From: an uncultured virus (IMG/VR IMGVR_UViG_2061766007_001949)
Lineage: Duplodnaviria; Heunggongvirae; Uroviricota; Caudoviricetes
Reading direction: 5' to 3' (one strand)
DNA length: 19,032 nt
IMG/VR virus record: IMGVR_UViG_2061766007_001949
In this document: in pieces, positions 1-19,032 of the stretch
Layout: every line of letters starts with the position of its first letter
Position numbering within the stretch: position 1 is the stretch's first letter
The notes under the pieces: model-generated
Told to the model about the DNA's origin: nothing
What the model saw: only the letters and a program-made list of their open reading frames with translations
Database searches by the model: none
Program-made: the position numbers and the translations under genes

Positions 1-10
1 TGTATCAGAA

Positions 11-328: not shown

Positions 329-331
329 GTC

Positions 332-935
332 ATGGGTAATAAAGTCAAATACAACCTGAAAAACGTTCATGCCGCTAAGCTCACGGAGACCGTGTCCAAA
401 GGCGTCACCACCTACACCTACGCGACCCCGCAGGCCATCCCCGGCGCGGTCAGCATCTCGCTGGATGCAGAGGGCGATTCTTCTCCGTTCTATGCCGATG
501 GCATCGTGTATTTCCGCTCCACTGCCAACAACGGCTATTCCGGCGACCTGGAAATCGCCCTCATCCCGGAGTGGTTCCGCACGGAAATTCTNNNNNNNNN
601 NTGAAACGGCGAAGTTCGCATTGCTCTTTGAGTTCGACGGCGATGTCCGCTGTATCCGCCATGTCCTTTATAACTGCTCCGCGTCCCGTCCGTCCATTGA
701 ATCCGAGACCAAGGAGGACACCATCGAGCCGGGTACGGAAACGCTGTCTCTGACGGCAGACCCGCGCAGCGACGGACTGGTGAAATCCCGTACCGGGGAC
801 AACACGGAGGATGCAACCTATCAGAATTGGTACAGCGCAGTCTACATTCCGGAGGAAGCTGACCTCGACCCGGAAAATCTCTCTATCGGCGATGTTTCCA
901 TCCCGCCCGACCCGAACAAGGGCGAGACTGCGTAA
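332..935 (+). CDS. Major tail (tube) protein, phi13-like family; one gene split by the gap at 592-601
   Basis: GGAGG SD upstream. N-terminal part [11 protein letters not shown]...PGAVSISLD...FYADG...[10 protein letters not shown] and post-gap part [10 protein letters not shown]...RHVLYNC...RPS are typical of this family. The frame change coincides with the gap. Confidence 0.88.
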
Positions 936-948
936 GGAGGGCTGAACC

Positions 949-1326
949 ATGCTTGAGAAAACTGTCAATATCAGCGGCAAGGAGGTCAAGTTCCGCTCTT
1001 CGGCCTCCGTGCCGCGCCTTTATCGCATCAAGTTCAAGCGGGACATCTTCAAAGACCTGTCCAAGCTGGAGAAATCCTATAAAGACCGTGGCGGCGAAGA
1101 TGGCTCCGCACTGGAAATCGACGACCTGGAGATTTTCGAGAATGTGGCCTATATCATGGCTTTTCATGCTGACCCCACCATCCCCGGCACCATTGACGAG
1201 TGGCTGGAGCAGTTTGAGATGTTCTCCATCTATCAGGTGCTGCCTGAAATCCTCGAACTCTGGGGCACCAATCTGGTCACGGATGTGGAGTCTAAAAAAA
1301 ACTTAGCCAGAGTAGCCGGGAACTGA
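949..1326 (+). CDS. Tail assembly chaperone, short (gpG-like) form, 125 aa
   Basis: AAGGAGG SD; lies between major tail and tape measure genes; ends S-K-K-N over an A8C run. Confidence 0.8.
   Translation: MLEKTVNISGKEVKFRSSASVPRLYRIKFKRDIFKDLSKLEKSYKDRGGEDGSALEIDDLEIFENVAYIMAFHADPTIPGTIDEWLEQFEMFSIYQVLPEILELWGTNLVTDVESKKNLARVAGN
1296..1302 (+). other. Probable -1 ribosomal frameshift slippery heptamer A-AAA-AAC
   Basis: tct aaa aaa aac in the chaperone frame fits X XXY YYZ; the -1 frame stays open to the TAA at 1485-1487. Confidence 0.8.
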
Positions 1327-1487
1327 CCACTCCGCTCTTCCTCCTGCGCTGCGTAGAACTCGGTATTTCCATCGCCGACCTCGACCTGCTCACGATTGGT
1401 CTCGTGCTGGATATGTGGACGGAGAAAGGCAACGACAGCGTGAGATACCAGAAGGTCGCTGGACAGGAGGAATTTGACCGGTTCTAA
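1299..1487 (+). CDS. Frameshift extension of the tail chaperone (gpT-like); fusion 949..1487 is about 179 aa. Absent from the ORF track
   Basis: The -1 frame reads KLSQSSRELTTPLFLLRCVELGISIADLDLLTIGLVLDMWTEKGNDSVRYQKVAGQEEFDRF* and fills the space up to the tape-measure SD. It has no ATG with an SD near its beginning. Confidence 0.78.
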   Translation, partial: KLSQSSRELTTPLFLLRCVELGISIADLDLLTIGLVLDMWTEKGNDSVRYQKVAGQEEFDRF

Positions 1488-1505
1488 GGAAGGAGGGTCA
1501 CCACC

Positions 1506-4018: not shown

Positions 4019-4665
4019 AACCTGATATCCTAATAGATTCTGTCTCCATGAATGCTCTGGGCTGGCTTCGGGAGACAGTCAATTTTCCAACTCCGCAAAG
4101 CCAGTCCGACACCGTCATCGTTCCGGGCAGGAATTCGCCCATCCGCTTCACCGAGGCGCTGGGCCGGGTGTCCTACCAACCGCGCTCCTTTGAACTGACA
4201 TTTTCCATGCTCGGCACCCGTGCTGCCTTCAACCAGATGGTCAATGAGATTGCAAACCGCTTCTCAGGCCATCTGGTACAGGTCATCTGCAGCGAGGAAC
4301 CGGAGCTTTTTATTGTCGGGACTGTGGAAGCCGCTCCGACTTACGACCCTCTGACAGCAAAAGGCCAGCTGGTGCTTTCCTGCACAGATGGAGACGCCTA
4401 TCGATACCACGTGTCCGAAACTGTGGTCACGATTTCCGGTTCGGGCACAGTCGCGCTGGAAAATGACTATATGCCGGTCGTGCCGACCATTACTACAACG
4501 GCTGAGACTACCCTGAACTGGCAGGTCGGCGGTGACACCTTCCGAAAAACAGTCAGCGCAGGCGTCTGGGAGTTCCCGGAGCTGGAGCTCTTGCAGGGGA
4601 CGAACACGGTGAGCGTATCCGGCACCGGTACCACGACATTCCGCTACCGGGAGGGATGTCTATGA
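4015..4665 (+). CDS. Distal tail protein (Dit)-like, 216 aa
   Basis: TTG start overlaps the tape-measure stop with AGGAGG upstream; VPGRN motif; LLQGTNTVSV C-terminus; canonical position after the tape measure gene. Confidence 0.8.
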   Translation: MKPDILIDSVSMNALGWLRETVNFPTPQSQSDTVIVPGRNSPIRFTEALGRVSYQPRSFELTFSMLGTRAAFNQMVNEIANRFSGHLVQVICSEEPELFIVGTVEAAPTYDPLTAKGQLVLSCTDGDAYRYHVSETVVTISGSGTVALENDYMPVVPTITTTAETTLNWQVGGDTFRKTVSAGVWEFPELELLQGTNTVSVSGTGTTTFRYREGCL

Positions 4666-4854
4666 GCCTGTTTCGTGTATTTGTGGACGGCGCGGTGTTC
4701 TATCACCCCNNNNNNNNNNTCCGGAGCTGGAGCTCCTGCAGGGAACGAACACGGTGAGCGTATCCGGCACCGGCACCACGACATTCCGCTACCGGGAGGG
4801 ATGCCTATGAGCCTGTTTCGTGTATTTGTGGACGGCGCGGTGTTCTATCACCCC
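4576..4854. repeat. Gap-flanking duplication 4576-4709 / 4721-4854 (assembly artifact, two haplotypes)
   Basis: 134-bp copies either side of 10 N, with four internal differences, all synonymous in Dit (ttg/ctg, ggg/gga, ggt/ggc, tgt/tgc). Confidence 0.9.
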
Positions 4855-6645
4855 AGCCTCTCCAAGCTGGCCATCACGGAGGCGAGGATTTCTGAGGATG
4901 CAGAGAGCATTGACAGCCTGACGTTATCCGCTCCCCATAATCATCCGTACCTTGCCAGTATCAAACCGATGCAGTCGGTCATCATCTGCAAGAAAAATGA
5001 TGAGACGGTCTTCGAGGGCCGCGCTCTGGATGACGGCTCTGATTTTTACAACACCCATACCTGGACATGCGAGTCCTGCCTTTCCTATCTGAAGGACACC
5101 GTGCAGCCGCCTTATTCCTACAAGGGGACGCTGCGTGGACTGCTGGAGTATTTTATTTCCGTCCACAATGGGGCCGTAGAGGACAAGAAGAAGTTCACGG
5201 TCGGCAATGTGACGGTGACCGACGACAACGACTATATCTCCTACAGCAGCTCCGGCTTCACCGTCACGTTGGACGCTATCCGGGACAAGCTCANNNNNNN
5301 NNNCGAGAGCATCGACAGCCTGACGTTATCCGCTCCCCATAACCATCCGTACCTTTCCAGTATCAAGCCAATGCAGTCGGTCATCGTCTGCAAGAAAAAT
5401 GATGAGACGGTCTTCGAGGGCCGCGCTCTGGACGACGGCTCCGATTTTTACAACACCCATACCTGGACATGCGAGTCCTGCCTTGCCTATCTGAAGGACA
5501 CCGTGCAGCCGCCTTATTCCTATAAGGGGACGCTGCGTGGACTGCTGGAGTATTTCATCTCTGTTCACAATGGAGCCGTAGAGGATAAGAAGAAGTTCAC
5601 GGTCGGCAATGTGACGGTGACAGATGACAACGACTATATCTCCTACAGCAGTTCCGGCTTCACTGTCACTCTGGATGCCATCCGGGACAAGCTCATCAAG
5701 ACCCACGGCGGGTATCTGCGGGTGCGCTATACCGACAACGGAAAAGTGCTCGATTACCTTGCAGACTTCAGCACGCACTCCCTGCAAACGGTGGAGTTCG
5801 GCAAAAACCTGCTGGATGTAAAAATCAGCCGCGACCACACGGGACGGGCCTCTGCGCTCATCCCTCTGGGAGCCCTGATAAAAGAAACAGATGCAGAAGG
5901 TCAGGAGATGGAGACCAACCGGCGCGTGGATATCACCTCCGTCAACGACGGGAAGAACTACGTCTGCGACGAGGATGCTGTTTCCGAAATCGGCTGGATT
6001 TGGACGAGCGAGATTTGGGAGGATGTGACCCTGCCCGGAAATCTGCTCCGTAAGGCAAAAGCCCGGATGCAGGAGCTGGCCAAAGGCGTCACCAGCATGG
6101 AGCTCACCATTGTGGATGAGTCGGATGCCGGTGCGGACATTGGGGACATTCGGGCGCGGATGTATGTCCGCTGTATATCCAAGCCCCACGGCATTGACGG
6201 CACTTACCTCTGCCTCAGCCGGACAGTGGATTATCTGAATCCTGCGGGCAACACCATCACGATTGGTGCCAGCGGCATCACACTTTCTTCAGCGTCTGCA
6301 AGGCAAGACCAGAATATCAGCGACTTGTCTGATGAGCTCGTCGGTGTGACCGGTGAGATTAAGACCATCAACGAACAGAAGATGTACCGCACCGAGACCT
6401 ATGTGGACGGCGTGAACATCTTCCGGGACAAGGGCCAGCACAGCATCCTGCGCTGCCGCGTGTTTTCATGGGATAAGGAAATCACAGAGCTGCTGGATGC
6501 TTCCTCATTCGTCTGGCACAGGAATTCCGGCGATGAGGCGGCAGACGCAGATTGGGATGCGTCCCATGTCGGCATGAAATACATCACAGTCACCACCGAG
6601 GATGTTCAGGACAACGCATCCTTTTACTGTGAAATCACCATATAG
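4807..6645 (+). CDS. Tal/baseplate hub-like tail protein (prophage tail endopeptidase family); about 478 aa after removing the artifactual duplication
   Basis: ATG overlaps the Dit stop (4662 in copy 1, 4807 in copy 2). FEGR...CESCLAYLKDT, HGGYLRVR, VEFGKNLLD, ALIPLG motifs; position after Dit. Confidence 0.8.
   Translation: MSLFRVFVDGAVFYHPSLSKLAITEARISEDAESIDSLTLSAPHNHPYLASIKPMQSVIICKKNDETVFEGRALDDGSDFYNTHTWTCESCLSYLKDTVQPPYSYKGTLRGLLEYFISVHNGAVEDKKKFTVGNVTVTDDNDYISYSSSGFTVTLDAIRDKLXXXXESIDSLTLSAPHNHPYLSSIKPMQSVIVCKKNDETVFEGRALDDGSDFYNTHTWTCESCLAYLKDTVQPPYSYKGTLRGLLEYFISVHNGAVEDKKKFTVGNVTVTDDNDYISYSSSGFTVTLDAIRDKLIKTHGGYLRVRYTDNGKVLDYLADFSTHSLQTVEFGKNLLDVKISRDHTGRASALIPLGALIKETDAEGQEMETNRRVDITSVNDGKNYVCDEDAVSEIGWIWTSEIWEDVTLPGNLLRKAKARMQELAKGVTSMELTIVDESDAGADIGDIRARMYVRCISKPHGIDGTYLCLSRTVDYLNPAGNTITIGASGITLSSASARQDQNISDLSDELVGVTGEIKTINEQKMYRTETYVDGVNIFRDKGQHSILRCRVFSWDKEITELLDASSFVWHRNSGDEAADADWDASHVGMKYITVTTEDVQDNASFYCEITI
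4903..5695. repeat. Gap-flanking duplication 4903-5293 / 5305-5695 (assembly artifact)
   Basis: 391-bp copies offset by 402 bp around the gap at 5294-5303; mostly third-position changes plus three conservative substitutions (A/S, I/V, S/A). Confidence 0.9.
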
Positions 6646-6656
6646 GAGGACATCGA

Positions 6657-8768
6657 ATGCCTACGATTCTGACTTCCAGCCAGCAGACGTTCGTAGATAT
6701 CACAGACCAGCGGAAGCTCTCCGCCTATATCACTTCCAATCTGCCGAAGACGCAGAGCGAAGACCCGAACGTGCTGCCGCACACCTATGCGCCCAGCTGG
6801 GCCACGATCCATCTTGTCCTGACTCCGGTCATCTTTCTCGACCAGACCTCCATCGCTTTGGATGCTACGGGCCTGACCATCTTGTGGAAGCGAAAGGACG
6901 GAGCCAGCGCCGAGACTGCTCTGACCACCGGTGAAGCAGCTTCTGCCGGTATCCTGACGGTCAGCCAGAACAAGCTGGCCGCTTCCGGCTCCGGCATGAT
7001 TACCTACATCTGCTATATCAGCTACTACGATTCCGAGACAAAGAACACGGTCAACATCTCCGCTGACATCACCTACACGCTGGTGAAGAATGCGGAAAAT
7101 GCCCGCCTCGCCTATGTCACCTCGGATACCTACGTTTTCAAATACAATACCGAAGGCACCATCGTCGGCGCTACCCAAGCTACGCTGACCGGCCAGGTGC
7201 AGGCCGTCACCATCAGCAAGTGGCAGTACAAGAACAGCTCCGGCAATTGGGCTGATTATCCCACCACCTCTGACAACACCAGCATTACCGGTGGTACCCT
7301 TGTCGTAAAGCCTTCTCACGCAGTCTTTACGAACAACGTAGCGCAAATCAAGCTCCTGACCAACGATTCTGACGTCTATGACACCGTGACCATCACGAAA
7401 ATCTACGATGGAGCCAAGGGCGAATCCGGTGGCTCCGGCCCCGGTGGATTGTCCGTCGTAGTCGGGAACGAGGCACAGGTAATCGCCTGCGCTTCTGGCG
7501 GCACGGTTTCCGCTGCCACCAACGTCACCATCCCGTTTACCGCCTTTCGCGGCATCGAGCAAGTGGCCTGTACCTGTGAGGTCGGAACCATGGCCACGGG
7601 CATCACGGTGAAAAGCAATACTCCGGCCACGGCTACAGCCGCAGGCTCGGTGGTGCTCACGTTCGCCAAGAGCGCGAACCTTGGCGGCACTTCTGTTCTC
7701 ACTGGCATAGTACCGCTCACGTTCACTGTTGATGGGATTACGGTCACGAAGAACTTCACATGGACAAAGGGCAAGGCTGGAGCTACTGGCACGGCTGCGG
7801 TCGTCTTTTCGATTTACGCACCGAATGGAACCATCGTGCAAAACCAGAGCGGCTCTCTGCTGCTGGCGACCTCGGCCTATTCCGGTGCGACTGCCATCAC
7901 CACCGGCACCTACCAATGGGCGAAGTACACCGGAGGCGAGTGGGTCAACATCAGCGGAGCCACAGAAGCGACTCTGACTGTATCCGGTTCGGAAATCATA
8001 AACATCCAGTCCTACCGCTGCACCATGACCTACAGCAGCAAAAACTACGTGGACGTCATCACGGTGGAGGATAAATCCGACCCGTATGTATCCGAAATGC
8101 TCTCCATCGGTGGCTTCACGGTCAAGAACAACCTCGGCGGCCTGGTGCCCTATGTCATCGTCCGTACCAATCAGAGGGAGGTCGACCCGCTCCTGGGCAA
8201 CATCTCGGAGACTGCGCCATCTTCTCCGAGCACCGGCGATTTCTGGTATCAGGTCGACCACACGGCAAAGACCGTCACGCTGANNNNNNNNNNCTCGGAA
8301 ATCGTAAACATCCAGTCCTACCGTTGCACGATGACCTACAGCAGCAAAAACTATGTGGATGTCATCACGGTAGAGGACAAATCCGACCCGTATGTGTCCG
8401 AAATGCTCTCCATCGGTGGCTTCACGGTCAAGAACAACCTCGGCGGTCTGGTGCCCTATGTCATCGTCCGTACCAACCAGCGGGAGGTCGACCCGCTCCT
8501 GGGCAATATTTCCGAGACTGCGCCATCTTCTCCGACCAGCGGCGATTTCTGGTATCAGGTCGACCACACGGCAAAGACCGTCACGCTGATGAAGTACAAC
8601 GGCTCGGCGTGGAAATCGGCCACAGAGTCACAGGAGCTGACCTATACCTGGTATGCACAGGATAAGGACGGCAACGCGGTGGCTTTCGATAAGAGTGGAA
8701 AAGTCATTTATCTCTCCGCTGCCGACATCGACAGCCTGATGACGCTGCAGTGTGACGTTTCCAACTGA
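6657..8768 (+). CDS. Minor tail/fibre protein with tandem beta-rich (Ig-like) modules and short Gly-rich linkers; about 601 aa after removing the duplication
   Basis: GGAGG SD; Thr/Ser/Gly-rich; recurring W...Y/F-x-C modules (YQWAK...YRCTM, YTWY...LQCDV); linkers DGAKGESG and KGKAGATG. Confidence 0.7.
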   Translation: MPTILTSSQQTFVDITDQRKLSAYITSNLPKTQSEDPNVLPHTYAPSWATIHLVLTPVIFLDQTSIALDATGLTILWKRKDGASAETALTTGEAASAGILTVSQNKLAASGSGMITYICYISYYDSETKNTVNISADITYTLVKNAENARLAYVTSDTYVFKYNTEGTIVGATQATLTGQVQAVTISKWQYKNSSGNWADYPTTSDNTSITGGTLVVKPSHAVFTNNVAQIKLLTNDSDVYDTVTITKIYDGAKGESGGSGPGGLSVVVGNEAQVIACASGGTVSAATNVTIPFTAFRGIEQVACTCEVGTMATGITVKSNTPATATAAGSVVLTFAKSANLGGTSVLTGIVPLTFTVDGITVTKNFTWTKGKAGATGTAAVVFSIYAPNGTIVQNQSGSLLLATSAYSGATAITTGTYQWAKYTGGEWVNISGATEATLTVSGSEIINIQSYRCTMTYSSKNYVDVITVEDKSDPYVSEMLSIGGFTVKNNLGGLVPYVIVRTNQREVDPLLGNISETAPSSPSTGDFWYQVDHTAKTVTLXXXXSEIVNIQSYRCTMTYSSKNYVDVITVEDKSDPYVSEMLSIGGFTVKNNLGGLVPYVIVRTNQREVDPLLGNISETAPSSPTSGDFWYQVDHTAKTVTLMKYNGSAWKSATESQELTYTWYAQDKDGNAVAFDKSGKVIYLSAADIDSLMTLQCDVSN
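7989..8589. repeat. Gap-flanking duplication 7989-8283 / 8295-8589 (assembly artifact)
   Basis: 295-bp copies offset by 306 bp around the gap at 8284-8293; the last 50 bp are identical. Confidence 0.9.
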
Positions 8769-8780
8769 GGAGGTGGTCTC

Positions 8781-9399
8781 ATGGCTCTTTTGACCGTCTG
8801 CCAGCACACCTTCCAGAACGTCACCGCTTACGAGGAGGCGGTCGAGGATGTTGCCGCTCTGAAGGTCAATGTGCAGGAATGCTACACCGAAATCACCAAG
8901 ACCTCGGAGCAGATACAGTCCTCCGTCCGGGAAACCTACATCTCAAAGTCGGAAATGGAGACGATACAGCAGGATTTCCAGACATCCATCACGGAGAGCA
9001 GCACAGAAATCCGCATGGACTTTCAATCTTCTCTGGATGTGGTCTCCGGGCAGGTTTCCGAGAATCAGGCGCTGCTGGAGGAATACATCCGTTTCAGGGG
9101 CGCTCTCATCGAGCTCGGCAAGGTGGGCAATGCCTTCACAGCCGAGCTGTCTAACGAACAGCTGGCCTTCAAAGAAAACGGCCAGACCATCGCATACATT
9201 TCAAACCAGTCACTGGTCATCACCAATGCGGAGATTCGCAACAANNNNNNNNNNGTACATTTCAAACCAGTCACTGGTCATCACCAATGCGGAGATTCGC
9301 AACAAGCTCTCCCTTGGAAATGAAGACCGTGGCTGGTTTGATTTTATCCCAAGAACATCCGGCAACCTCTCCATCGTCTGGAGAGCCCCGGCATCTTAA
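8781..9399 (+). CDS. Minor tail protein with coiled-coil N-terminus; one gene of about 185 aa, with an artifactual frameshift
   Basis: GGAGG SD. A 50-bp duplication (9195-9244 / 9256-9305) around the gap at 9245-9254 adds 61 bp; removing it gives a continuous frame ending ...ITNAEIRNKLSLGNEDRGWFDFIPRTSGNLSIVWRAPAS. Confidence 0.75.
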
Positions 9400-9413
9400 G
9401 GAGGTGACGGCAC

Positions 9414-11525
9414 ATGGCTTCCAGTGGTTCCTTCTCCGGCTCCATCTGTAGCGGCCACTATGTGCTCCGCATTGACTGGTCGCAGGCGCAGAATGTGTCG
9501 GCGAATACCAGTACCATCACAGCAAAAATCTATCTGGTCAATGACTGGCGTCTGGACATTGGCGCTCGTACCGCCAATACCATAAGCATCGGCGGCACCT
9601 CGCAGGGCTTCACGTCTCCCGCCGTCACAACGACCGGAGAGCATCTGCTCAATACAGTCACGCAGACAGTGACCCATGAGAGTGACGGCTCCAAGAGCAT
9701 CTCCATCAGCGCGGTCTTCAGCTTTGCGGCGACCATCTCCGGCACCTACTATTCCACGATTTCTGCCAGCGCCAACATCACGCTGGACTCGATTCCCCGC
9801 GCCTCTGACGTGAGTATGCCCACCGGAACGATGGGGAGCTCTGTAGCGATTACTATCACTCCGGCATCCAGCTCATTCACGCACACGCTCACCTATACCT
9901 TTGGCTCTCTGTCGGGGACGATTTCGACAAAGACGACCGCCACGACGGTAAACTGGACGCCTGCGCTAACGATGGCAAATCAGCTGCCGAATGCCACATC
10001 AGGGACGGGCACCCTCAAATGCACCACCTACAGCGGCAATACAGCAGTCGGCTCCAAGTCGATAACCATCACCTTAAAGGTTCCTACGACAGTGGTTCCG
10101 AGCCTGACCAGCCTGACGGCGGCGCGGGTCAACGGCACTGTCCCTTCAAGCTGGGGCATTTACGTGCAGACAAAATCCAAGGCGACACTCACTATCAACG
10201 GCGCGGCAGGCTCCTATGGCTCCACGATTACAGGATACAGCATTACAGGAGGCGGATTCTCCAGCACCAGTTCCTCCTTCACTACTGGCTTTTTGAACAC
10301 CTCCGGTACGATAACCTTCACGGCGACGGTGACGGATTCCAGAGGCCGGACGTCTGCAGCAAAAACGGTGAGCATCTCCGTGGTGGCCTACAGCGCTCCG
10401 TCCTTCGCCAGCTATCTGTCCCAGCGATGCAACAGCTCCGGTACGGTGACGAATGACGGCACCTATGTCCGGGGGCTGGTGGATTTCACCTACAGCAGCT
10501 GCTCCAGCAAGAACACCATCACTACAGCCACCTATTACAAGAAGAGCTCTGCTACCAGCTGGACAAACGCCAGCAAAGCCTTCTCCGACAATACGGCCTT
10601 TACCTTCGGCGGCAGCCTTACGACAGAAAGCTCCTATGACATCAAATATACCCTGACGGATGCGTTCACGACCATCAGCGTCATCGATACGGTCTCCACC
10701 GCATCTGTGGTCATGGACTTCAAAGCCGGAGGGACAGGCGTGGCCATCGGCAAGGTGGCTGAGAACAACGGCTTTGATGTCGATATGGCCACCGAGTTCC
10801 GAAGCACGGTCAAAATCGATGGAACAGCTACCTTCGGTGGAGATGTAGTCGGGATTCCCCACAGCTATTACGGAACCTGCGCAACGGCAGCCTCCACTTC
10901 CATCAAGGTCGTGACCTGCGCCCATTTCAAAAAGGAAGTCGGAGCGGTCGTAACGATTCTCATGACCTACGCCAATACCGTGGCGTCTCCGAGGCTGAAC
11001 ATCAACAGTACAGGGGCCAGTTATCTGAGCTATGGCAATGTAACGAAATCTGGTGCGTACCGCTGGCTTGCGGGGAGTATGCTCACGGTCATGTACACAG
11101 GAAGCTATTACGAGGTTCTGTCGATTGGCGCGACCTGGGTACCGACTGTGGCCGGAGCAAGCACGACATATAACGCGAGAGAAGGCTACTTCACCTACAC
11201 TGGCGGCGTCGTGACGCTTTCTTTTACGGCAAACGGGAGCTTCCTCAGCACGACCACAACCTCTACTGCGCTGGAGGTTACCGGCTTTCCCTTCACGAAC
11301 GCCAGCGCAGGCGTGGCGGCAGGTGGCGGTGTGGCATACGGGGCGTATCTCGGTACGAACGCGACCTCACATTTTCATGGATGGGTCATCTCATCTGGGG
11401 CTTCGGCTATTAGCGGCAGGAATGGAACTAAGAGTGCCGCCAATCTGCAGATGCTCGGCTATCTCTATAACAATCCATCCACCAATTTCAACCTGTCCGG
11501 AACGATACAAATGCGCGTGATTTAA
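9414..11525 (+). CDS. Siphovirus minor structural/receptor-binding protein, DUF859-like (703 aa)
   Basis: AAGGAGG SD; ITLDSIPRAS, ATVTDSRGRTS and GVAIGKVAE motifs resemble DUF859 proteins; last structural gene before the holin. Confidence 0.75.
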   Translation: MASSGSFSGSICSGHYVLRIDWSQAQNVSANTSTITAKIYLVNDWRLDIGARTANTISIGGTSQGFTSPAVTTTGEHLLNTVTQTVTHESDGSKSISISAVFSFAATISGTYYSTISASANITLDSIPRASDVSMPTGTMGSSVAITITPASSSFTHTLTYTFGSLSGTISTKTTATTVNWTPALTMANQLPNATSGTGTLKCTTYSGNTAVGSKSITITLKVPTTVVPSLTSLTAARVNGTVPSSWGIYVQTKSKATLTINGAAGSYGSTITGYSITGGGFSSTSSSFTTGFLNTSGTITFTATVTDSRGRTSAAKTVSISVVAYSAPSFASYLSQRCNSSGTVTNDGTYVRGLVDFTYSSCSSKNTITTATYYKKSSATSWTNASKAFSDNTAFTFGGSLTTESSYDIKYTLTDAFTTISVIDTVSTASVVMDFKAGGTGVAIGKVAENNGFDVDMATEFRSTVKIDGTATFGGDVVGIPHSYYGTCATAASTSIKVVTCAHFKKEVGAVVTILMTYANTVASPRLNINSTGASYLSYGNVTKSGAYRWLAGSMLTVMYTGSYYEVLSIGATWVPTVAGASTTYNAREGYFTYTGGVVTLSFTANGSFLSTTTTSTALEVTGFPFTNASAGVAAGGGVAYGAYLGTNATSHFHGWVISSGASAISGRNGTKSAANLQMLGYLYNNPSTNFNLSGTIQMRVI

Positions 11526-11538: not shown

Positions 11539-11952
11539 ATGAAAGAATTCTGGAACACCATTCAACTTGTATTTGCGGCCATCGGCGGCTGGCTGGGCTA
11601 CTTCCTCGGCGGCTGCGATGGCCTGCTCATTGCGCTCGTGGTCTTCGTCGTTGTGGACTACCTTACCGGCGTCATGTGCGCCATCGCAGACCACAAGCTC
11701 TCCAGCGCTGTCGGCTTCAAGGGCATCTGCCGCAAGGTGCTCATCTTCCTGCTGGTGGGTATCGCCAACATCCTCGATGTGCAGGTCATCGGAAGCGGCT
11801 CTGTCCTGCGCACGGCAGTCATCTTTTTCTACATCTCGAATGAAGGCGTCTCTCTCGTGGAGAATGCCGCGCACCTCGGCCTGCCCGTACCGGACAAGCT
11901 GAAAGATGTGCTGGAGCAGCTCCACGACCGTGACGGAAAGGAGGGCCAGTAA
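11539..11952 (+). CDS. Phage holin (toxin secretion/phage lysis holin, holin_4_1-like), 137 aa
   Basis: Hydrophobic segments; DYLTG, SS..GFKGI.RK, FYISNEGVSLVENAAHLGLPVP motifs; directly upstream of the endolysin. Confidence 0.93.
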   Translation: MKEFWNTIQLVFAAIGGWLGYFLGGCDGLLIALVVFVVVDYLTGVMCAIADHKLSSAVGFKGICRKVLIFLLVGIANILDVQVIGSGSVLRTAVIFFYISNEGVSLVENAAHLGLPVPDKLKDVLEQLHDRDGKEGQ

Positions 11953-11953
11953 C

Positions 11954-12892
11954 ATGGCATATACAAACAGTTCGCTTGTATCATTCACCCAGCTCAGTCC
12001 GAATCACTCCGGCCAGCGCACTCACGCCATTGACCGTATCACGCCTCACTGCGTGGTTGGCCAGTGCAGCGTGGAGACCCTGGGCCGGATTTTTCTGCCC
12101 ACATCCCGGCAGGCAAGCTGCAATTATGGCATTGGTGTAGATGGCCGTGTCGGAATGTATGTCGAGGAGAAGAACCGCTCGTGGTGTTCCTCCTCCAATG
12201 CCAACGACCAGCGGGCAGTCACCATCGAGTGCGCTTCCGACACCACGGCTCCTTACGCCTTCAAGGATGTGGTCTACCAGAAGCTCATCACCCTCTGCAT
12301 CGACATCTGTAAGCGGAACGGAAAGAAGAAGCTCCTGTGGCTCGGCGACAAATATAAGACACTGAACTACAGCCCTGCAGCCGATGAGATGGTGCTGACT
12401 GTCCACCGATGGTTTGCCAACAAGTCCTGTCCCGGCGACTGGATGTATGCCCGGATGGGCGACCTTGCCTCGAAGGTCACAGCGGCCCTTAGTGGCACGG
12501 TCACTACACAGAAGCAGCTCTATCGCGTCCGCAAGACGTGGTCGGATTCCAAATCGCAGAAGGGCGCTTATAAAATCCTTGCCAATGCAAAAGCGTGTGC
12601 TGATAAGAATCCGGGATACTCCGTCTTCGATTCTGACGGGAATGCCGTCTACACATCCGAGACAGGCTCTGCCGGTGTTCCCGGTGATGCCACCTTCAAG
12701 GTTCGGGTGTCTGTTCCTGACCTGAACATCCTCACCGGGCCGGGGACAAACTACGCAGCTACCGGTCGTTTCACCGGTGCCGGGGTCTTCACCATCACCG
12801 CCGTGCAGTCCGGGCAAGGCTCTGACTCCGGCTGGGGCAAGCTCAAGTCCGGCGCGGGCTGGATTGCGCTGGATTACGCCAAGCGCGTATAA
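11954..12892 (+). CDS. Endolysin: N-acetylmuramoyl-L-alanine amidase (Amidase_2-like) with C-terminal cell-wall-binding and SH3b-like domains (312 aa)
   Basis: ATG at 11954 with GGAGG upstream (the track's 11906 start overlaps the holin). ITPHC, ASCNYGIG, TIEC, HRWFANKSCPG Zn-amidase motifs; GWGKLKSGAGWIALDY SH3b-like end. Confidence 0.9.
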   Translation: MAYTNSSLVSFTQLSPNHSGQRTHAIDRITPHCVVGQCSVETLGRIFLPTSRQASCNYGIGVDGRVGMYVEEKNRSWCSSSNANDQRAVTIECASDTTAPYAFKDVVYQKLITLCIDICKRNGKKKLLWLGDKYKTLNYSPAADEMVLTVHRWFANKSCPGDWMYARMGDLASKVTAALSGTVTTQKQLYRVRKTWSDSKSQKGAYKILANAKACADKNPGYSVFDSDGNAVYTSETGSAGVPGDATFKVRVSVPDLNILTGPGTNYAATGRFTGAGVFTITAVQSGQGSDSGWGKLKSGAGWIALDYAKRV

Positions 12893-12908
12893 TCGCATAA
12901 ACCATTCT

Positions 12909-12942
12909 GGGCCTATGGGAGAAATCCTGTAGGCCCCTTTTT
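12909..12942 (+). terminator. Intrinsic terminator closing the late operon
   Basis: 12-bp stem gggcctatggga / tcctgtaggccc (two G-U pairs), GAAA loop, followed by cttttt; 16 nt after the endolysin stop. Confidence 0.88.
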
Positions 12943-12971
12943 CTATTTTTGATACAAATATCCGCTCAAAA

Positions 12972-13024
12972 CGGCCTCCCACCTTCAGTGGAAACTGAAG
13001 GATAAGCCTTCGGATTGGAGGTCG
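12972..13024 (+). promoter_or_regulatory. Structured leader with anti-SD pairing upstream of the HTH gene
   Basis: cggcctcc (12972-12979) is complementary to ggaggtcg (13017-13024), which contains the SD; it encloses the hairpin ccttcagt-GGAA-actgaagg (12982-13001). Confidence 0.45.
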
Positions 13025-13026
13025 CT

Positions 13027-13449
13027 ATGACAAACGAACAGAAATACAAAATCGCGGAGCTCCGCCAGTCCGGGTACGGATACGCCAATATTGCTGATGC
13101 GCTCGGCCTGACCAAGAATCAGGTCTCTGCCTACTGCCGCAGGGCAGGGCTTACCGGCACCAAGGCCGCTGTGGGCACGACCGATGTTCCTGCTTCAAAC
13201 TGCTGCCGTAACTGCGGCAAGCCGCTGATGCAGGTCGACGGGAGGAAGCCTGTCAAGTTCTGCTCGGAAGCCTGCCGCATCCACTGGTGGAATACGCATC
13301 CGGACGCTGTGGATAAAAAGGCGTTCTACGATTTCACATGCGCTTGCTGCGGGAAGCCTTTCCGGGCCTATGGCAATTCCCAGCGGAAATACTGCTGCCA
13401 TGCCTGCTATGTTCAGGCTCGGTTCCGAGGTGGTGATGGCCATGACTGA
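13027..13449 (+). CDS. HTH (sigma-70 region-4-like) DNA-binding protein with two Cys-rich putative Zn-binding motifs (140 aa)
   Basis: ATG at 13027 after GGAGG; GYGYANIADALGLTKNQVSAYCRR helix-turn-helix; CRNCGK...FCSEAC and CACCGK...YCCHAC. Confidence 0.75.
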   Translation: MTNEQKYKIAELRQSGYGYANIADALGLTKNQVSAYCRRAGLTGTKAAVGTTDVPASNCCRNCGKPLMQVDGRKPVKFCSEACRIHWWNTHPDAVDKKAFYDFTCACCGKPFRAYGNSQRKYCCHACYVQARFRGGDGHD

Positions 13450-13657
13450 GGAGCAATTCGACCGGGAGAAACGGTATCAGGCCAGCATGAATATGTTCCG
13501 GACGATGCTGAAAAACGGCCTCATCACTGAGGAGCAATACGCCATAATTGATACAAAAATGCTGGAAAAATATCGGCCATTATTGGGGACATTATTTTCA
13601 GAATCTACTTGCTATTCCGGGCTTTCAGAGCGATGTATAGTACCGGAAAGGAGCTGA
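13442..13657 (+). CDS. Small SHOCT-like protein (71 aa), candidate recombination accessory factor
   Basis: GAGGTG SD; overlaps the upstream stop; MLKNGLITEEQY resembles the SHOCT pattern; lies immediately before the recombinases. Confidence 0.65.
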   Translation: MTEEQFDREKRYQASMNMFRTMLKNGLITEEQYAIIDTKMLEKYRPLLGTLFSESTCYSGLSERCIVPERS

Positions 13658-13661: not shown

Positions 13662-15680
13662 ATGCGAAAAGTAAGCAAAATCGAGCCGATTTCTCCATCG
13701 CTCCCGACCCGCAAGAAGGTCGCTGCATACGCAAGAGTTTCGATGGAGACCGAACGACTCAACCACTCCCTGTCAGCGCAGGTCAGCTATTACAGCAATC
13801 TGATTCAGAGCAATCCGGAATGGGAATACGCTGGAGTCTATGCGGACAACGCGGTCACCGGCACAAAGTCCTCCAGCCGCGAGGAATTCCAGCGGATGTT
13901 AGAGGATTGTGAAGCTGGGAAAATCGATATCATCCTCACGAAGAGCATCTCAAGATTCGCCCGGAACACAGTCGACCTGCTGGAGACTGTCCGCCACCTG
14001 AAGGAGCTGGGCATCGAGGTTCGGTTCGAGAAGGAGCACATCAATTCCCTGAGCGGCGACGGTGAGGTCATGCTGACTCTGCTGGCCTCCTTCGCACAAG
14101 AGGAAATCCGGAGCCTCTCGGAGAACGTGAAATGGGGCACCCGGAAGCGCTTTGAGCAGGGCATTCCCAACGGGCGGTTCTTGATTTACGGCTACCGTTG
14201 GGAGGGCGACCATCTGGTCGTCGAGCCGGAGGAGGCCAAAATCGTCCGGCTCATCTACGACAATTTCCTGAAGGGCCTCTCGGCAGAGGCGACGGAAAAA
14301 CAGTTGGAGGAGATGGGCGTGAAGTCCATGAAGGGAATGCATTTTCCCAACAGCTCCATTCGGGCCATCCTCAAAAACATCACCTACACCGGGAACCTGC
14401 TCTTTCAGAAGGAATACACCCTTGACCCCATCAGCAAAAAGACCCGCAAGAACCACGGTGAACTGCCTCAGTATTTCGTGGAGAACACCCACGAGGCCAT
14501 CATCCCGATGGAGACCTANNNNNNNNNNCGCCTCATCTATGACAATTTCCTGAAGGGCCTCTCGGCAGAGGCAACGGAAAAACAGCTGGAGGAGATGGGC
14601 GTCAAGTCCATGAAGGGGATGCATTTTCCCAACAGCTCCATTCGGGCCATTCTCAAAAACATCACCTACACCGGGAACCTTCTGTTCCAGAAGGAATACA
14701 CCCTTGACCCTATCAGCAAGAAGACCCGCAAGAACCATGGAGAGCTTCCGCAGTATTTCGTGGAGAACACCCACGAGGCCATCATCCCGATGGAGACCTA
14801 TCAGGCGGTGCAGGCTGAGATTGCGCGGCGGCGGGAGCTCGGCGCTCTGGCCAACTGGAGCATCAACACCAGCTGCTTCACATCGAAAATCAAATGCGGT
14901 CTTTGTGGTGCCAGTTTTGTACGCAACACCCGGAAGAACCGGGCCAAGACCAGTCAGCTGGGGGAACGTTACACTTTCTACGGCTGCGGCACAAACAAGC
15001 GTAAGGGAGAACACTGTTCCTCCGGCACGATACGCGAGGATGTTCTGAAAGAGGAATGCGCCAAGGCGCTCGGCCTGCCGGAATTTGACGAGGAGACCTT
15101 CTCAGAACGGGTCGAAAAGATTACGATTCCAACCACCGGCACGATGCTCTTCGAGTTTACCGATGGGAGCTCCCTTGAGCATCGTTGGAGCCGGAATGCA
15201 AAAAAGGAAAGCTGGACAGCAGAACGGCGCAAGGCGGTCAGTGAGTACCGGCGCAGTCGGGAGACCGGATGGAAATGCTATCACACCTTCACTCACTTCA
15301 TCAAATGCGGGCGCTGCGGAGCGAACTATCGCTGCCAGACGCACAAGCGCGTGGACGGGACGGTAGTACGTTCCTGGTACTGTTCGTCGCCGACAGCGGT
15401 GGGCTGCTCCAAGGTCGGCATCCGGGAGGACACGCTAAAGGCGCTCATAGCAGATGTGATGGGCCTGCCGGAGTTTGACGAGGATCTTTTCAATCAGCAG
15501 CTGGCTTACGCAACGGTGCCCGCAGACAATCAGATTGTCTTTCACTTCCGGGATGGGCGCGAGGTTTCCAGAACCTTCGTCCAGAAGCGCCAGATGCCGC
15601 GCCAGACTGAGGAGAGGAAGAAGCACATGAGCGAGGTCATGAAAGCGAAATGGAGGGAACGCCATGCCGAAAACGACTAA
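13662..15680 (+). CDS. Large serine recombinase 1; about 578 aa after removing the duplication; two Zn-ribbon domains
   Basis: AAAGGAG SD; AAYARVS catalytic motif, KSISRFARN, AQEEIRSLSEN, recombinase domain (Y.GN...QK...HEAII), CGLCG and CGRCG Zn ribbons. Confidence 0.95.
   Translation: MRKVSKIEPISPSLPTRKKVAAYARVSMETERLNHSLSAQVSYYSNLIQSNPEWEYAGVYADNAVTGTKSSSREEFQRMLEDCEAGKIDIILTKSISRFARNTVDLLETVRHLKELGIEVRFEKEHINSLSGDGEVMLTLLASFAQEEIRSLSENVKWGTRKRFEQGIPNGRFLIYGYRWEGDHLVVEPEEAKIVRLIYDNFLKGLSAEATEKQLEEMGVKSMKGMHFPNSSIRAILKNITYTGNLLFQKEYTLDPISKKTRKNHGELPQYFVENTHEAIIPMETXXXXRLIYDNFLKGLSAEATEKQLEEMGVKSMKGMHFPNSSIRAILKNITYTGNLLFQKEYTLDPISKKTRKNHGELPQYFVENTHEAIIPMETYQAVQAEIARRRELGALANWSINTSCFTSKIKCGLCGASFVRNTRKNRAKTSQLGERYTFYGCGTNKRKGEHCSSGTIREDVLKEECAKALGLPEFDEETFSERVEKITIPTTGTMLFEFTDGSSLEHRWSRNAKKESWTAERRKAVSEYRRSRETGWKCYHTFTHFIKCGRCGANYRCQTHKRVDGTVVRSWYCSSPTAVGCSKVGIREDTLKALIADVMGLPEFDEDLFNQQLAYATVPADNQIVFHFRDGREVSRTFVQKRQMPRQTEERKKHMSEVMKAKWRERHAEND
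14247..14800. repeat. Gap-flanking duplication 14247-14518 / 14529-14800 (assembly artifact)
   Basis: 272-bp copies offset by 282 bp; identical translation with synonymous differences only; the last 50 bp are identical. Confidence 0.9.
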
Positions 15681-17417
15681 GAAGATTACCACCATCCCGG
15701 CTACGCTGACCCGCTTCACAGCTACGCCTATCACGGAGCAGAAAAAGCGCCGGGTCGCCGGTTATGCGCGTGTTTCCACTGACCACGATGACCAGTTCAC
15801 CAGCTATGAGGCCCAGATTGATTACTACACGAATTACATCAAGAGCCGGGACGATTGGGAGTTCGTCGATGTCTATACGGACGCAGGCATCACGGGCACC
15901 AGCACCAAGCACCGCGAGGGCTTCAAACGCATGGTCGCGGATGCGCTGGCCGGGAAAATCGACCTCATCGTGACCAAGAGCGTCAGCCGGTTTGCCCGGA
16001 ACACGGTGGACAGTCTGACCACCATCCGCCAGCTCAAGGAAAACGGCATCGAGTGCTATTTTGAGAAGGAGAACATCTGGACGTTCGACGGGAAGGGCGA
16101 GCTGCTCCTGACCATCATGTCCTCGCTGGCGCAGGAGGAAAGCCGGAGCATATCTGAAAACTGCACCTGGGGCCAGCGGAAGCGCTTTGCAGACGGCAAG
16201 GTCACGGTTCCCTTCAACCGGTTCCTCGGCTACGACCGTGGGCCGGACGGCAATCTGGTGGTCAACCGGGAGCAGGCGGCCATTGTTCAGCGCATCTACG
16301 CCATGTTCCTTCAGGGCATGACCTACAACGGCATCGCCCAGCAGCTCACGGATGACGGCATCNNNNNNNNNNTGTTCCGTTCAACCGGTTCCTCGGCTAT
16401 GACCGTGGGCCGGACGGCAATCTGGTGGTCAACCGTGAGCAGGCAGCTATTGTTCAGCGCATCTACGCCATGTTTCTTCAGGGCATGACTTACAATGGCA
16501 TCGCTCAGCAGCTCACGGCTGACGGCATCCTGTCTCCCGGAGGAAAGCCCAAGTGGAATACCTCGGCGGTCAAAAGCATCCTGTCAAACGAGAAATACAA
16601 GGGCTGCGCTCTCCTGCAAAAGACCTACACGGTCGATTACCTGACGAAGAAAAAGAAGGTCAATGAGGGCGAAATCCCGCAATACTATGTGGAGGACAAC
16701 CACGAGGCTATCATCGACCCGGACACCTTCGAGATGGTGCAGCGTGAGATGGAGAAGCGCGGCAAGGGCCGGAAATACCATAGTGGCGTCCACACCTTCT
16801 CCAGTAAAATCCGCTGCGGTGAGTGCGGCAGCTGGTACGGCTCAAAGGTATGGCACTCCAACAGCAAGTACCGGAAGGTCATCTGGCAGTGCAATCACAA
16901 ATTCGACGGCGACAAGCATTGCAGCACTCCGCACCTGACCGATGACATCATCCAGCAGGCTTTCCTGTCAGCGGCAAATAAGCTGCTGGCCACCAAGGAT
17001 ACAGTCATCGCGGATGGCCGGGAAATGATGGCCCTGCTCTTTGACACCACCGACTTGGAGCGGGAGCAGGAAGAACTCCAGCAGGAAACGCAGGTGGTCT
17101 CCGATATGGTTCAGCAGTGCATCTACGAAAATGCCCACGTTGCCCTCGACCAGACCGAATACCAGAAACGCTACGACGGCCTGACCGAGCGTTTTGAGAA
17201 GGCCAAGGCCCGACTGGACGCGGTCACAGCCGAAATCCATCAGATGCAGACCCAGCGGGCCAGCATTGAGGATTTCCTGAAAGCCTTTGCAGCCATGCCG
17301 GATGAACTGACCGAATTTACGCTGGAAAGCTGGCACGGGCTGGTGGACTACGGCACCGTCTACTCTGCCGACGACATCCGCTTCACCTTCAAAAACGGGC
17401 AGGAAGTAAAAGCGTAA
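15664..17417 (+). CDS. Large serine recombinase 2; one gene of about 528 aa, with an artifactual frameshift at the gap 16363-16372
   Basis: GYARVS, KSVSRFARN, AQEESRSISEN, NEKYKG, CGECG Zn ribbon and a long coiled coil. The duplication 16207-16362 / from 16374 adds 167 bp; removing it restores one frame. Confidence 0.93.
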
Positions 17418-17435
17418 ACCAATTATGTATATAAA

Positions 17436-17476: not shown

Positions 17477-17490
17477 TTATCTATTCAATT

Positions 17491-18660
17491 TTATGCCAAT
17501 ATTTCATCCAATAATGTCTGATATTTTTTGTGCAGAGACGCCACCATTAGTTTATACCAAATCTCTCTGGAATACGTTCCATTCTCTATACACCAAATCT
17601 TATAATGCAATTTCTTTTCGGCATAAAAATCTATCGGTATTTCCGGATTAGCATCAGCGTATTTTTGCTCGTAGTCTGAGTATATATATTGATTCTTAGT
17701 ATAATCGATGTGTGTAAAAACATCATCCTCTGGATAATACATGCCATGCAAGAATGTAGTTATACACGGAGAATCTGCTTCTCCAGTAGGACAATATGGC
17801 AAAGTCTCAATTTCAATATGAAGAAATGCCTTCTTTCGCGTATCATCATAATCTTTCTTTATAACCATAAGCAGTTTGTCGTATGTTTTTGAGTCAATAT
17901 GTACGATGATTGTTTTGGCTTTTGTAAAATCTGTATCCGTAAAATGAAACTGTGGGCCACGGAATTTCTCGAAATTCAATGTTGAATACGAGATAATCTG
18001 GTCTGCAGGTACAGCCAAACGTTCATCTAAACGAAGCAGAATGTCTCCAGAATCGACGTTCTCCGTAATTATCTTTGCAAAACCGGGCATACCATCAAAA
18101 AAACCTATCTTTGACTTGTTTGTCAACAAATTATACAGATATGCTTTTCCATCAAAGATAAATGAATCCGCCCTAAACTCTACTCCAGGAACAGACGTTA
18201 GGCCATACTGATTCGTTTCATATGCAAACTGCTCTCCCAGCAGCATATCGTTTATGTCTATATATTTTTTTCTGAATGTGTCTAAAATGAACCCTGAGAT
18301 AATAAGAAAAAGAAACTCAGCTTCAACCTGAATGGTTCCGGTTACTCCGGGCCTACGAATAAAAGCCGTATCATAGTACATTATCCATCCGTGGCTATCG
18401 TTATTTTCCATGTAATTCAGAATATTATCCCCAGTAATACCTTTTTCACAAAATAGCTCACCGACTCGATTAACCAACGGAATTAGAAATGGCGGAGTTG
18501 GAAACGTATTCTCTTTGGTTCTTAAGGACGTAAAATAATCCAGCATCGGTTTATAAATAGAGAAAGCTAAATATTCAACAGCTTTGTACTCCTCAGTTTC
18601 TATTATTTCAAACAGAAACTGTTCGATGACATCTGCTTGGTCTTTTGCTGATGATACCAT
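17491..18660 (-). CDS. Hypothetical protein (389 aa), AT-rich cargo
   Basis: Long ORF in visibly AT-rich DNA with an AAGGAG SD upstream of the ATG; no family recognised. Confidence 0.85.
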   Translation of the reverse strand: MVSSAKDQADVIEQFLFEIIETEEYKAVEYLAFSIYKPMLDYFTSLRTKENTFPTPPFLIPLVNRVGELFCEKGITGDNILNYMENNDSHGWIMYYDTAFIRRPGVTGTIQVEAEFLFLIISGFILDTFRKKYIDINDMLLGEQFAYETNQYGLTSVPGVEFRADSFIFDGKAYLYNLLTNKSKIGFFDGMPGFAKIITENVDSGDILLRLDERLAVPADQIISYSTLNFEKFRGPQFHFTDTDFTKAKTIIVHIDSKTYDKLLMVIKKDYDDTRKKAFLHIEIETLPYCPTGEADSPCITTFLHGMYYPEDDVFTHIDYTKNQYIYSDYEQKYADANPEIPIDFYAEKKLHYKIWCIENGTYSREIWYKLMVASLHKKYQTLLDEILA

Positions 18661-18662
18661 TC

Positions 18663-18845
18663 TTAATGCTCCTTACTCTCAATCCGAGCCAATGCCTCCA
18701 GCATATGCTTCCCAATGGCTTCAGGATTTTTATTATAAGATTCACAGATGAGGCGTAACCCGTCGGATGTCAGAAACCTTCCGTGGTCTCTATCATAACA
18801 CAACTTCTTGTACTCTTCGTATTCTTTCTTTGAAATTGTAGGCAT
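18663..18845 (-). CDS. Small hypothetical protein (60 aa), probably co-transcribed with the 389-aa gene
   Basis: AAGGA SD 7 nt before the ATG at 18845 (alternative GTG at 18848); its stop is 2 nt from the next start. Confidence 0.7.
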   Translation of the reverse strand: MPTISKKEYEEYKKLCYDRDHGRFLTSDGLRLICESYNKNPEAIGKHMLEALARIESKEH

Positions 18846-18890
18846 CACAAAATCCTTCCGAAGATTAAAATAGCGTCGATTTCAGAAAAC

Positions 18891-18938
18891 CGACACCCCT
18901 AATCAGACCGACACCCCTGTGGCCCCTGCGACACCCCT
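18891..18938 (+). repeat. Three direct repeats of CGACACCCCT
   Basis: Exact 10-mers at 18891-18900, 18909-18918 and 18929-18938. Confidence 0.92.
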
Positions 18939-18942
18939 TTGG

Positions 18943-19032
18943 TCAGGCCGCTGTGCTTTGTATCAAATTTTGCGTCTTTATTTCGATGTAGATCATCTTG
19001 ACCTTGCCGAGATAGCTCTGCTGGAGCAGCTT
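18943..19032 (-). pseudogene. mod: 5' fragment of a type III R-M Mod-like (beta-class N6-adenine) methyltransferase, truncated at the DPPY motif; continues beyond the window
   Basis: Minus strand reads KLLQQSYLGKVKMIYI (19032-18985), the sequence that normally precedes DPPY in Mod proteins, then EIKTQNLIQSTAA* (stop at 18945-18943). Only 16 codons are visible. Confidence 0.78.
18950..19010. other. Putative attachment junction (attL/attR) of the prophage, crossover near 18983-18984
   Basis: Methyltransferase-like coding sequence ends inside the Asp codon; a tttgtatcaaa box lies 16-26 bp inside; the site is near a serine-recombinase module. Confidence 0.7.

Follow-up and report, generated by a model that had tools for sequence, protein, structure and literature searches.

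The right end of the analysed sequence, a stretch of 19,032 nucleotides from an uncultured virus of the class Caudoviricetes (IMG/VR record IMGVR_UViG_2061766007_001949), referred to below as the window, is very probably the junction of a temperate prophage with its host chromosome, produced by a large serine recombinase (LSR) at the bases GA of the motif IV aspartate codon of a type III restriction–modification gene mod; the D-P-x4-G site to which this codon belongs is, at the same high level of confidence, reused across several methylase families. The features of the window are listed in Table 1.

Table 1. Features of the window, with their positions, strand and the basis of each assignment
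Feature	Position	Strand	Basis or remark
Siphovirus-type tail module: tape measure, distal tail, tail-endopeptidase and DUF859 proteins	1..11525	+	domain matches
Holin, amidase endolysin, HTH protein and SHOCT protein; these close the late region, ahead of the recombinases	11539..13657	+	domain matches
Large serine recombinase 1 (LSR1), 578 aa in relatives	13662..15680	+	domain match
Large serine recombinase 2 (LSR2), 528 aa in relatives	15664..17417	+	domain match
Cargo ORF of 389 aa, no family assigned	17491..18660	-	profile and structure searches
ORF of 61 aa, attP-proximal cargo, no family assigned	18663..18848	-	profile searches
Three direct GGGGTGTCG repeats, just interior to the right arm	18891..18937	-	motif count against shuffles
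Right attP arm: 16 nt after GA, then TTGATA (18966..18961); mirrors TATCAA-N16 of the G264 left arm	18940..18982	-	kept in 15 IMG/VR and 25 genome junction loci
13 phage-arm codons EIKTQNLIQSTAA and the TGA that ends the truncated Mod	18943..18984	-	translation
GA, predicted crossover dinucleotide: first two bases of the DPPY Asp codon, common to attB and attP	18983..18984	-	sole sequence common to the host gene and both phage arms in every junction compared
3' end (16 codons, KLLQQSYLGKVKMIYI) of the N-terminal fragment of type III mod	18985..19032	-	gene extends past the window edge

Read on the minus strand, the host-type codons at the window edge, translated as KLLQQSYLGKVKMIYI, are followed by GAA (18984..18982) and then by IKTQNLIQSTAA; beyond the host part the truncated frame comprises 13 codons in all (18984..18946) and is closed by a TGA stop (18945..18943). 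Translation of positions 19032..18931 gives KLLQQSYLGKVKMIYIEIKTQNLIQSTAA, terminated by a stop. The GA of the expected aspartate codon of DPPY is retained at the break, and codons of the phage arm replace the remainder. This order of host codons, GA/A, 13 codons and a stop, described in the earlier note, is exact, and it is found independently in the IMG/VR record G002, which is 97% identical to the window over positions 12900-19032, has the same junction and extends 6 kb further into host DNA.

The uninterrupted form of the gene was found in a metagenome contig (L191), where the 48 host bases of the window are present without a difference and continue as GACCCGCCCTACAAG, encoding DPPYK. Beyond the 48 bases this contig reads GA-CCC-GCC-CTA-CAA-GAC (DPPYKTGNDFIYRDDF), encoding DPPYKTGNDF, within an ORF of at least 599 aa that matches the PADLOC profile MTase_III (E 3.5e-169). 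By its sequence, L191 is the empty site of the window's own mod allele, and the placing of the break at the GA of the DPPY aspartate codon, proposed before any such comparison, agrees with the continuation of the same 48 bases. The interrupted ORF of G002 encodes a Mod N-terminal part of 130 aa, ending in ..LYIEGDNLEVLKLLQEAYLGKVKMIYI, which aligns with positions 2-122 of 621 of MTase_III (E 2.4e-51). The fragment in the window is accordingly the N-terminus of a type III Mod; the window itself holds 16 of its codons, and the family call is made through G002 and L191. Both matches bear out the type III identity that had been suggested, and the search advised with the N6_N4_Mtase profile gave Pfam matches in the Mod of an intact locus (L156) and in left-arm loci.

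Homologs of the Mod N-terminal part were found in 89 of the 262 genomes of the family of G001. Among the 30 homologous loci listed, 25 are intact and continue as ..IYI/DPPYN(T/V)G (the slash here and below marks the point corresponding to the junction) in ORFs of about 600-700 aa, three lack the motif region, and two are interrupted, cut at the same GA by other elements. Since 25 of 30 loci continue in this way, the identical 48 host bases recur in L191 and the junction recurs in G002, the junction is real and beyond chance. At least two other types of arm occur at the same GA of mod, namely, GA-CAAAAGAATAGC.TATTTGATAC and GA-TATATTCACTCAGGGATTGATATAA; they derive from L023 (G195), L037 (G178), L065 (G263) and a loose end of run X1 at window position 18977, and all of them carry TTGATA 16 nt after GA.

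The surroundings of the gene are represented by the intact orthologous locus L156 (G092:C2), with the order SNF2 helicase-DUF4391-Mod-Res. Its Mod matches MTase_III (E 1.7e-199), and the adjacent Res matches REase_III (E 4e-279) and contains ResIII and RE_endonuc domains. On the 5' side of the G002 N-terminal part, a 206-aa ORF, a DUF4391 gene and a gene for a 1082-aa SNF2/ResIII helicase were found; in the window and in G002, res would lie past the other end of the prophage, and its position next to mod was seen in L156. Both in L013, the flank of G002, and in L156, mod is preceded by the DUF4391 protein and by the conserved helicase of about 1080 aa, which matches the PADLOC profile C3a139 'HKD+Snf2' (E 3.9e-123). 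Such a gene order points to a defence island of four genes and not to a type III system on its own.

As a scaffold, the window consists of small contigs, which may derive from mixed phage variants. It contains eight runs of N (positions 592-601, 1514-1575, 4710-4719, 5294-5303, 8284-8293, 9245-9254, 14519-14528 and 16363-16372), at least two of which, around 16363 and 14519, are flanked by duplicated overlaps. A scaffold so fragmented could also contain a chimeric join at the junction, all the more as the only contig of run X1 that covers the junction without differences (18885-19012) has less than 31 nt on the host side and was not counted as bridging. Such an artefact is nevertheless extremely improbable: the junction lies within one N-free piece of the scaffold (16373-19032), G002 repeats it with 6 kb of host DNA, and the layout of arm, GA and methylase gene recurs in dozens of independent records. 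The misassembly named in the earlier note is not borne out by these records.

Two genes of large serine recombinases are located between the late region and the cargo, and both proteins contain the domains Resolvase, Recombinase and Zn_ribbon_recom (Pfam). LSR1 of 578 aa and LSR2 of 528 aa are intact in G001, G002 and G264. The 672-aa form of LSR1 in the window was rejected as an artefact of the N-run 14519-14528 and the duplicated overlap of about 272 nt around it; likewise, the apparent split of LSR2 arises artificially from the N-run 16363-16372, which has a duplicated overlap of 156 nt (93.6% identity) around it. Among the window, G002, G001 and G264, 21 of 578 columns vary in LSR1 and 12 of 528 in LSR2, and in these four copies no variable column separates those inserted in mod from those inserted in hsdM. 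The nearest solved chains are 3g13, a conjugative-transposon recombinase (E 1e-44 to 1e-45), and SprA of SPbeta. No DUF4368 domain was found in either LSR in the Pfam search at E <= 0.01. With hallmarks of LSR recombination present, namely, a 2-bp GA core common to attP and attB and an attP formed by an inverted repeat, we infer that one or both of these enzymes catalyse the insertion.

The genes between the recombinases and the right arm are exchangeable: in G001 and G264 the slot of the 389-aa protein carries other genes. This protein has 515 homologs (E<=1e-3), nearly all of about 389 aa and named only 'hypothetical protein'; no Pfam, PHROG or PADLOC family and no Atlas lead were obtained for it. 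Its AF2 model (pLDDT 81.9) predicts a helical N-terminal domain and a beta-rich C-terminal domain, and gave no Foldseek match at E<=0.001, the best VIA Z being 5.3. Read-through of the cargo from the mod promoter was considered as well: a weak terminator-like hairpin of four GC pairs lies at 18872-18897 between the mod fragment and the cargo genes, and promoter-like matches are at background level (8 against 6.3 expected). The G002 phage encodes an N6_N4-type methyltransferase (426-aa ORF, G002:C1:18526-19095), and DndB-like and PAPS-reductase-like proteins are also encoded by the phage in this record (L014, G002 1-9000). From these three ORFs, a phage of the G002 type carries DNA-modification genes of its own while disrupting those of the host.

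The structure of the attachment site was derived from the two junctions of G264, in which GA is the only shared core: ..CGTATATAT-GA-AATTAAGACGCAAAATTTGATACAAAGC and ..CTTGTATCAAAGATTACGTCTTTATA-GA-CCCCTGCTGTGGTTCTGGCGGG, the latter encoding DPCCGSGGMF. The reconstructed attP is TATCAA-N16-GA-N16-TTGATA, an imperfect inverted repeat, and intact attP of this form was found in L096/L171, L131 and one contig of run X1. Interior to the right arm, the GGGGTGTCG motif was counted three times against 0.2 expected, a number reached in none of 200 shuffles; the repeats are spaced by 18 and 20 nt and are kept in related arms as GGGGTGTCG or GGGGTTTCG. An accessory or directionality factor may bind to them.

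Both halves of a split gene were found around prophages of this kind in several relatives. The two junctions of G264 are about 57 kb apart, and its hsdM is split on one strand, with N6_Mtase profile positions 2-52 at 58.1 kb and positions 48-311 at 0.5-1.3 kb. In G265, pglX is split, the N-terminal part corresponding to positions 1-317 of 1210 of the BREX-1 PglX profile and the C-terminal part beginning with DPCMGSAHF after the left arm. In G263, the N-terminal part of mod is located on one contig and DPPYNTGGDFVYKDDF follows the left arm on another, the intact ortholog being that of G259. The DPPY-bearing remainder of mod adjoins the other phage arm in L048, L167 and L169. The expectation that this remainder would be found at the far end of the prophage therefore holds in the relatives L048, L167 and L169; G002, however, stops within phage DNA without a left junction, and no DPPY occurs in its first 9 kb, where genes of the phage (DndB-like, PAPS reductase) are located. 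In G001, no match to the left 6 kb of G002 was found. The contig G001:C47, which carries the remainder of the split hsdM, starts exactly at the junction GAC (GAC GGA..); this may reflect a branch of the assembly graph, a mixture of occupied and empty forms, or chance, and as a mere contig break it was set aside as evidence of excision.

Recombination by LSRs is conservative. As both halves of the gene flank such prophages in relatives, excision would rebuild the split gene. The alternative proposed in the earlier note, that the far end supplies a replacement 5' part and re-wires mod, finds no support in the left arm: in the A-type arm, 37 in-frame codons are open, and they include one TTG but no Shine–Dalgarno-like sequence. 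A 5' part supplied by the phage was accordingly rejected as unsupported, no start codon with a ribosome-binding site being present in the left arm.

If excision restores mod, the prophage might act as a reversible switch, as the earlier note proposed, integration turning off the Mod methylome together with type III restriction and non-lytic excision turning them on. We consider such active lysogeny unlikely. It would be in keeping with the conservative crossover at GA, with recombinases that are intact in relatives, with empty-site mod contigs in the same metagenomes (three in X1, two in X3, four in X5 and eight in X7), and with the attP contig in X1; precedents of excision that restores a gene are given, in the parts of these papers dealing with them, for A118 in comK (PMC4701971) and for gene-intervening elements of sporulation (PMC5595907). 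On the other hand, other strains or phage variants may account for the empty sites and for the attP form: the X1 attP contig has six differences in 98 nt and belongs, not to the phage of the window, but to a variant whose arm is about 94% identical. Excision frequency cannot be read from contig-level data, and no recombination directionality factor was identified. The depth in X1, about 200-700 for the host bases and about 16 for the phage, says nothing on the excision rate, because the contigs come from a mixed community and the 48 bases are conserved.

The opposite possibility is that the prophage or mod is in decay and that nothing can be restored, the other phage end or the C-terminal portion of mod being lost. 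The window shows one end of the prophage only, G178 and G195 (genomes 93% and 83% complete) yielded no C-terminal half for their interrupted mod genes, and seven of 33 left-arm loci carry degenerate short ORFs resembling motif I that could be decayed targets. A dead end of this kind is quite unlikely, given that, artefacts at N-runs aside, the genes for tail, lysis and recombinases have open frames, that the stretch is present in 19 runs of 11 studies (share of sampled words at least 0.74), and that a phage 95-99% identical, in G264, has an intact pair of junctions.

The insertion is not confined to mod. Over positions 1-17413 and 18867-18984, the phage in G264 has 95-99% identity with the window; it differs in the cargo alone, and is located in hsdM at ..Y/DPxCGxG. 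G001 contains the same recombinases in a different hsdM (..STYLIY/DGACGTGG). A contig of run X3 (3110 nt), with two differences from the window over 17400-18984, cargo included, continues into hsdM as ..VLQPFKGRVY/D, and the phage end in a contig of run X5 continues into ..MIEPFDGTLY/D; the flanks of these two contigs were obtained as reverse complements by hand. The aspartate codon that is hit belongs to AdoMet motif I in hsdM and to catalytic motif IV in mod. Among GenBank phages, only two distant matches were found, at 78% identity.

A survey of the right arm in 185,579 species genomes gave 54 loci, 29 of them unrelated and 25 true arms. The 25 junctions comprise 12 in HsdM, two in PglX, one in RlmL/THUMP, one in Mod (L107, called by its sequence), one intact attP and eight unassigned, the last lying outside recognisable methylase genes and including three that were too short to scan. 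In the 12 HsdM junctions, N6_Mtase is cut at profile positions 42-53. Taxa given in the titles of the records are Lachnospiraceae, Ruminococcus, Faecalibacterium, Selenomonadaceae, Sarcina, Pseudoramibacter, Anaerovoracaceae and Coriobacteriales. In IMG/VR, the same search gave 21 loci, six unrelated and 15 junctions, the latter with 12 distinct flanks: three Mod-like (L069, identical with G002, and L080 and L081, assigned by motif only), two HsdM, one PglX, two RlmL/THUMP-like (one weak) and four unassigned.

The left arm was found in 33 loci of IMG/VR. After it, ten loci start at N6_Mtase profile position 52 and two at N6_N4_Mtase position 7 (DPPYNTG), one each matches MmeI_Mtase, Eco57I and, weakly, N6_Mtase, three are short motif-I starts, and nine are others outside recognisable methylase genes, one attP included. 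The seven degenerate loci, counted separately (L162, L163, L168, L176, L180, L186 and L189), have motif-I-like codons after the left arm, such as DQTCGSGGFF and DDTCGTEYFL, in short ORFs; they could be decayed targets or attB-like decoys.

Near-identical recombinases accompany the different targets. LSR2 is 97-100% identical beside the Mod junctions of the window, G002 and L081, beside three types of HsdM (G001/L150, G264/L075 and L071), and beside the genes in L087 and L148. A homolog of LSR2 lies inside the retrieved flank in 10 of the 15 IMG/VR loci and in 4 of the 25 genome loci, where flanks of 1.5 kb were retrieved. The left half of attB is nearly unconserved, its best position being T at -5 (1.2 bits). 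The right half is patterned by codons (GA, C4, C5, C8, T10, G13, S17, G19, G20), the protein contexts being D-P-x4-G (DPCCGSG, DGACGTG, DPCMGSG, DPPYNTG) and the DNA GAYCC....T......C.GG. The recombinases may, judging from these alignments, read the coding DNA of D-P-x4-G. The idea that the most conserved codons of mod serve as attB stands as far as the core is concerned, GA of the DPPY aspartate codon; it does not stand as a mod-only site, since the same phage with the same recombinases is inserted in hsdM and the same arms adjoin pglX and MmeI-like, Eco57I-like and RlmL-like genes.

These counts also raise the possibility, to which we give some weight but well below even, that motif I of hsdM is the primary attB and that mod is a secondary site (pseudo-attB), used where a suitable hsdM is lacking. 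Secondary insertion in mod is conceivable because the codons of DPPYNTG resemble those of DPxCGxG. HsdM accounts for 12 of the 25 genome junctions against one for Mod, Mod agrees with the right-half logo at only about eight of its 12 best-conserved positions, and no match to the Mod N-terminal part was obtained in G001, whose phage is inserted in hsdM; secondary sites are reported for serine integrases of ICEs in the relevant part of PMC4701971. However, mod has been hit repeatedly and independently by elements with the right arm, namely, in the window, G002 (host flank differing at 8 of 50 nt), L107, L080 and L081, near-identical LSR2 beside such arms having been checked at G002 and L081 only; DPPYNTG also follows the left arms in L167 and L169, and arms of two other types are joined to this GA of mod. 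The reading given at the outset, a D-P-x4-G site shared by several methylases with mod as one of its targets, is retained.

Elements that insert by LSRs inside a coding sequence and restore it on excision include phi10403S in comK, SPbeta in spsM, skin in sigK and CcrAB elements in rlmH, CcrAB of SCCmec being a pair of tandem LSRs with a methylase gene as target. These switch prophages and SCCmec each have a single dedicated target gene, together with a physiological trigger that has been demonstrated; in this they differ from the present phage, which is found in several targets. Restoration on excision is also described for A118 in comK in the relevant passage of PMC4701971.

The closest parallel in target recognition is TndX of Tn5397, a conjugative transposon of Clostridioides difficile; as the pertinent sections of PMC4430133 describe it, central GA is present in every target and DNA coding for the Fic domain is preferred, and the authors suggested that a ubiquitous domain gives promiscuous elements targets in many hosts. 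As in TndX, an LSR of clostridial type, a GA core and a target in the coding DNA of a conserved domain are found here; compared by these descriptions, the present element differs in being a tailed prophage with tandem LSRs, in targeting methylase motif I or IV and not Fic, and in lacking DUF4368. For streptococcal ICEs, the corresponding sections of PMC4701971 state that triplets of serine integrases disrupt hsdM and a single integrase rumA, with repeats of 2-8 bp, and the authors propose that the gene is restored on excision. Serine-integrase elements thus break hsdM or RNA methylase genes in both cases; the ICEs, as presented there, are conjugative and have one target gene per class, whereas here one phage lineage crosses Mod, HsdM, PglX, MmeI-like and RlmL-like genes at one codon.

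Multi-targeting LSRs were defined by Durrant et al. (2022), in the portion of PMC10083194 devoted to them, as one cluster at 90% identity that occurs in over three clusters of target genes (50% identity); that clade mostly contains DUF4368 and recognises short degenerate motifs. The near-identical LSR2 (97-100%) in several divergent genes may be a case of this kind. It differs from the clade, as characterised in that portion, in the absence of DUF4368 and in targets that are nearly all methylases, mostly of defence systems. In a survey of prophages of C. clostridioforme, an 'HsdM N-terminal domain' is mentioned among accessory genes in the part concerned (PMC11318856); speculatively, this may be the same phenomenon of a split gene. 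In the literature searched, no cross-family targeting of the DPPY or motif-I aspartate codon by an LSR or prophage was found; subscription journals or supplements may hold such a report.

According to the proposed mechanism, a temperate siphovirus-like phage would enter the chromosome by LSR recombination with crossover at GA, the start of the aspartate codon in ...KMIYI-D-PPY, catalytic motif IV of type III mod. Mod is broken off close to residue 130 of some 620-650 and ends in the 13 codons of the phage arm. The same phage is found at the aspartate codon of AdoMet motif I (..Y/D-P-x-C-G-x-G) in type I hsdM, and elements with the same arms are found in pglX of BREX as well as in genes resembling MmeI, Eco57I and RlmL. 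Excision would restore the gene, recombination being conservative, and the conserved motif would let the phage find a site of entry in many hosts.

Res of type III systems (EcoP15I type) cannot do without Mod, nor HsdR of type I systems (EcoKI type) without HsdM and HsdS, nor BREX without PglX. As Res, HsdR and BREX all depend on the methylase, its disruption should remove the defence without self-restriction: loss of Mod, HsdM or PglX would end methylation together with restriction, and the host would survive. Loss of defence without self-restriction fits the spectrum of targets. It is tentatively suggested, as a hypothesis that is more likely wrong than right, that in this widespread lineage of temperate gut and rumen phages the recombinase pair has evolved to read the D-P-x4-G core of N6-adenine methyltransferases, landing in whichever defence methylase the host has and reversibly disabling type I, type III or BREX systems, so that the site would be at once a universal attB and a switch of defence and methylome.

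Phages that insert into genes by means of LSRs and insertions of ICEs in hsdM are already known; what is new is a single site, defined at the level of the codon, used by a near-identical phage across the Mod, HsdM, PglX, MmeI/Eco57I-like and RlmL-like families. Its use would explain how an attB is kept across many hosts among the Firmicutes. For annotation, partial restriction–modification genes or 'HsdM N-terminal domain' genes at the ends of prophages may be split host genes and not cargo; for engineering, this is a natural LSR whose tolerance in the half-site can be mapped. Integration itself would disable restriction or BREX, in contrast to the lack of general enrichment of LSR targets in defence genes stated in the portion of PMC10083194 cited above. 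If the recombinases are indeed readers of defence methylases, type I, type III and BREX would be exactly the systems in which the host survives the loss of the methylase, and the attB of these phages would double as an anti-defence switch.
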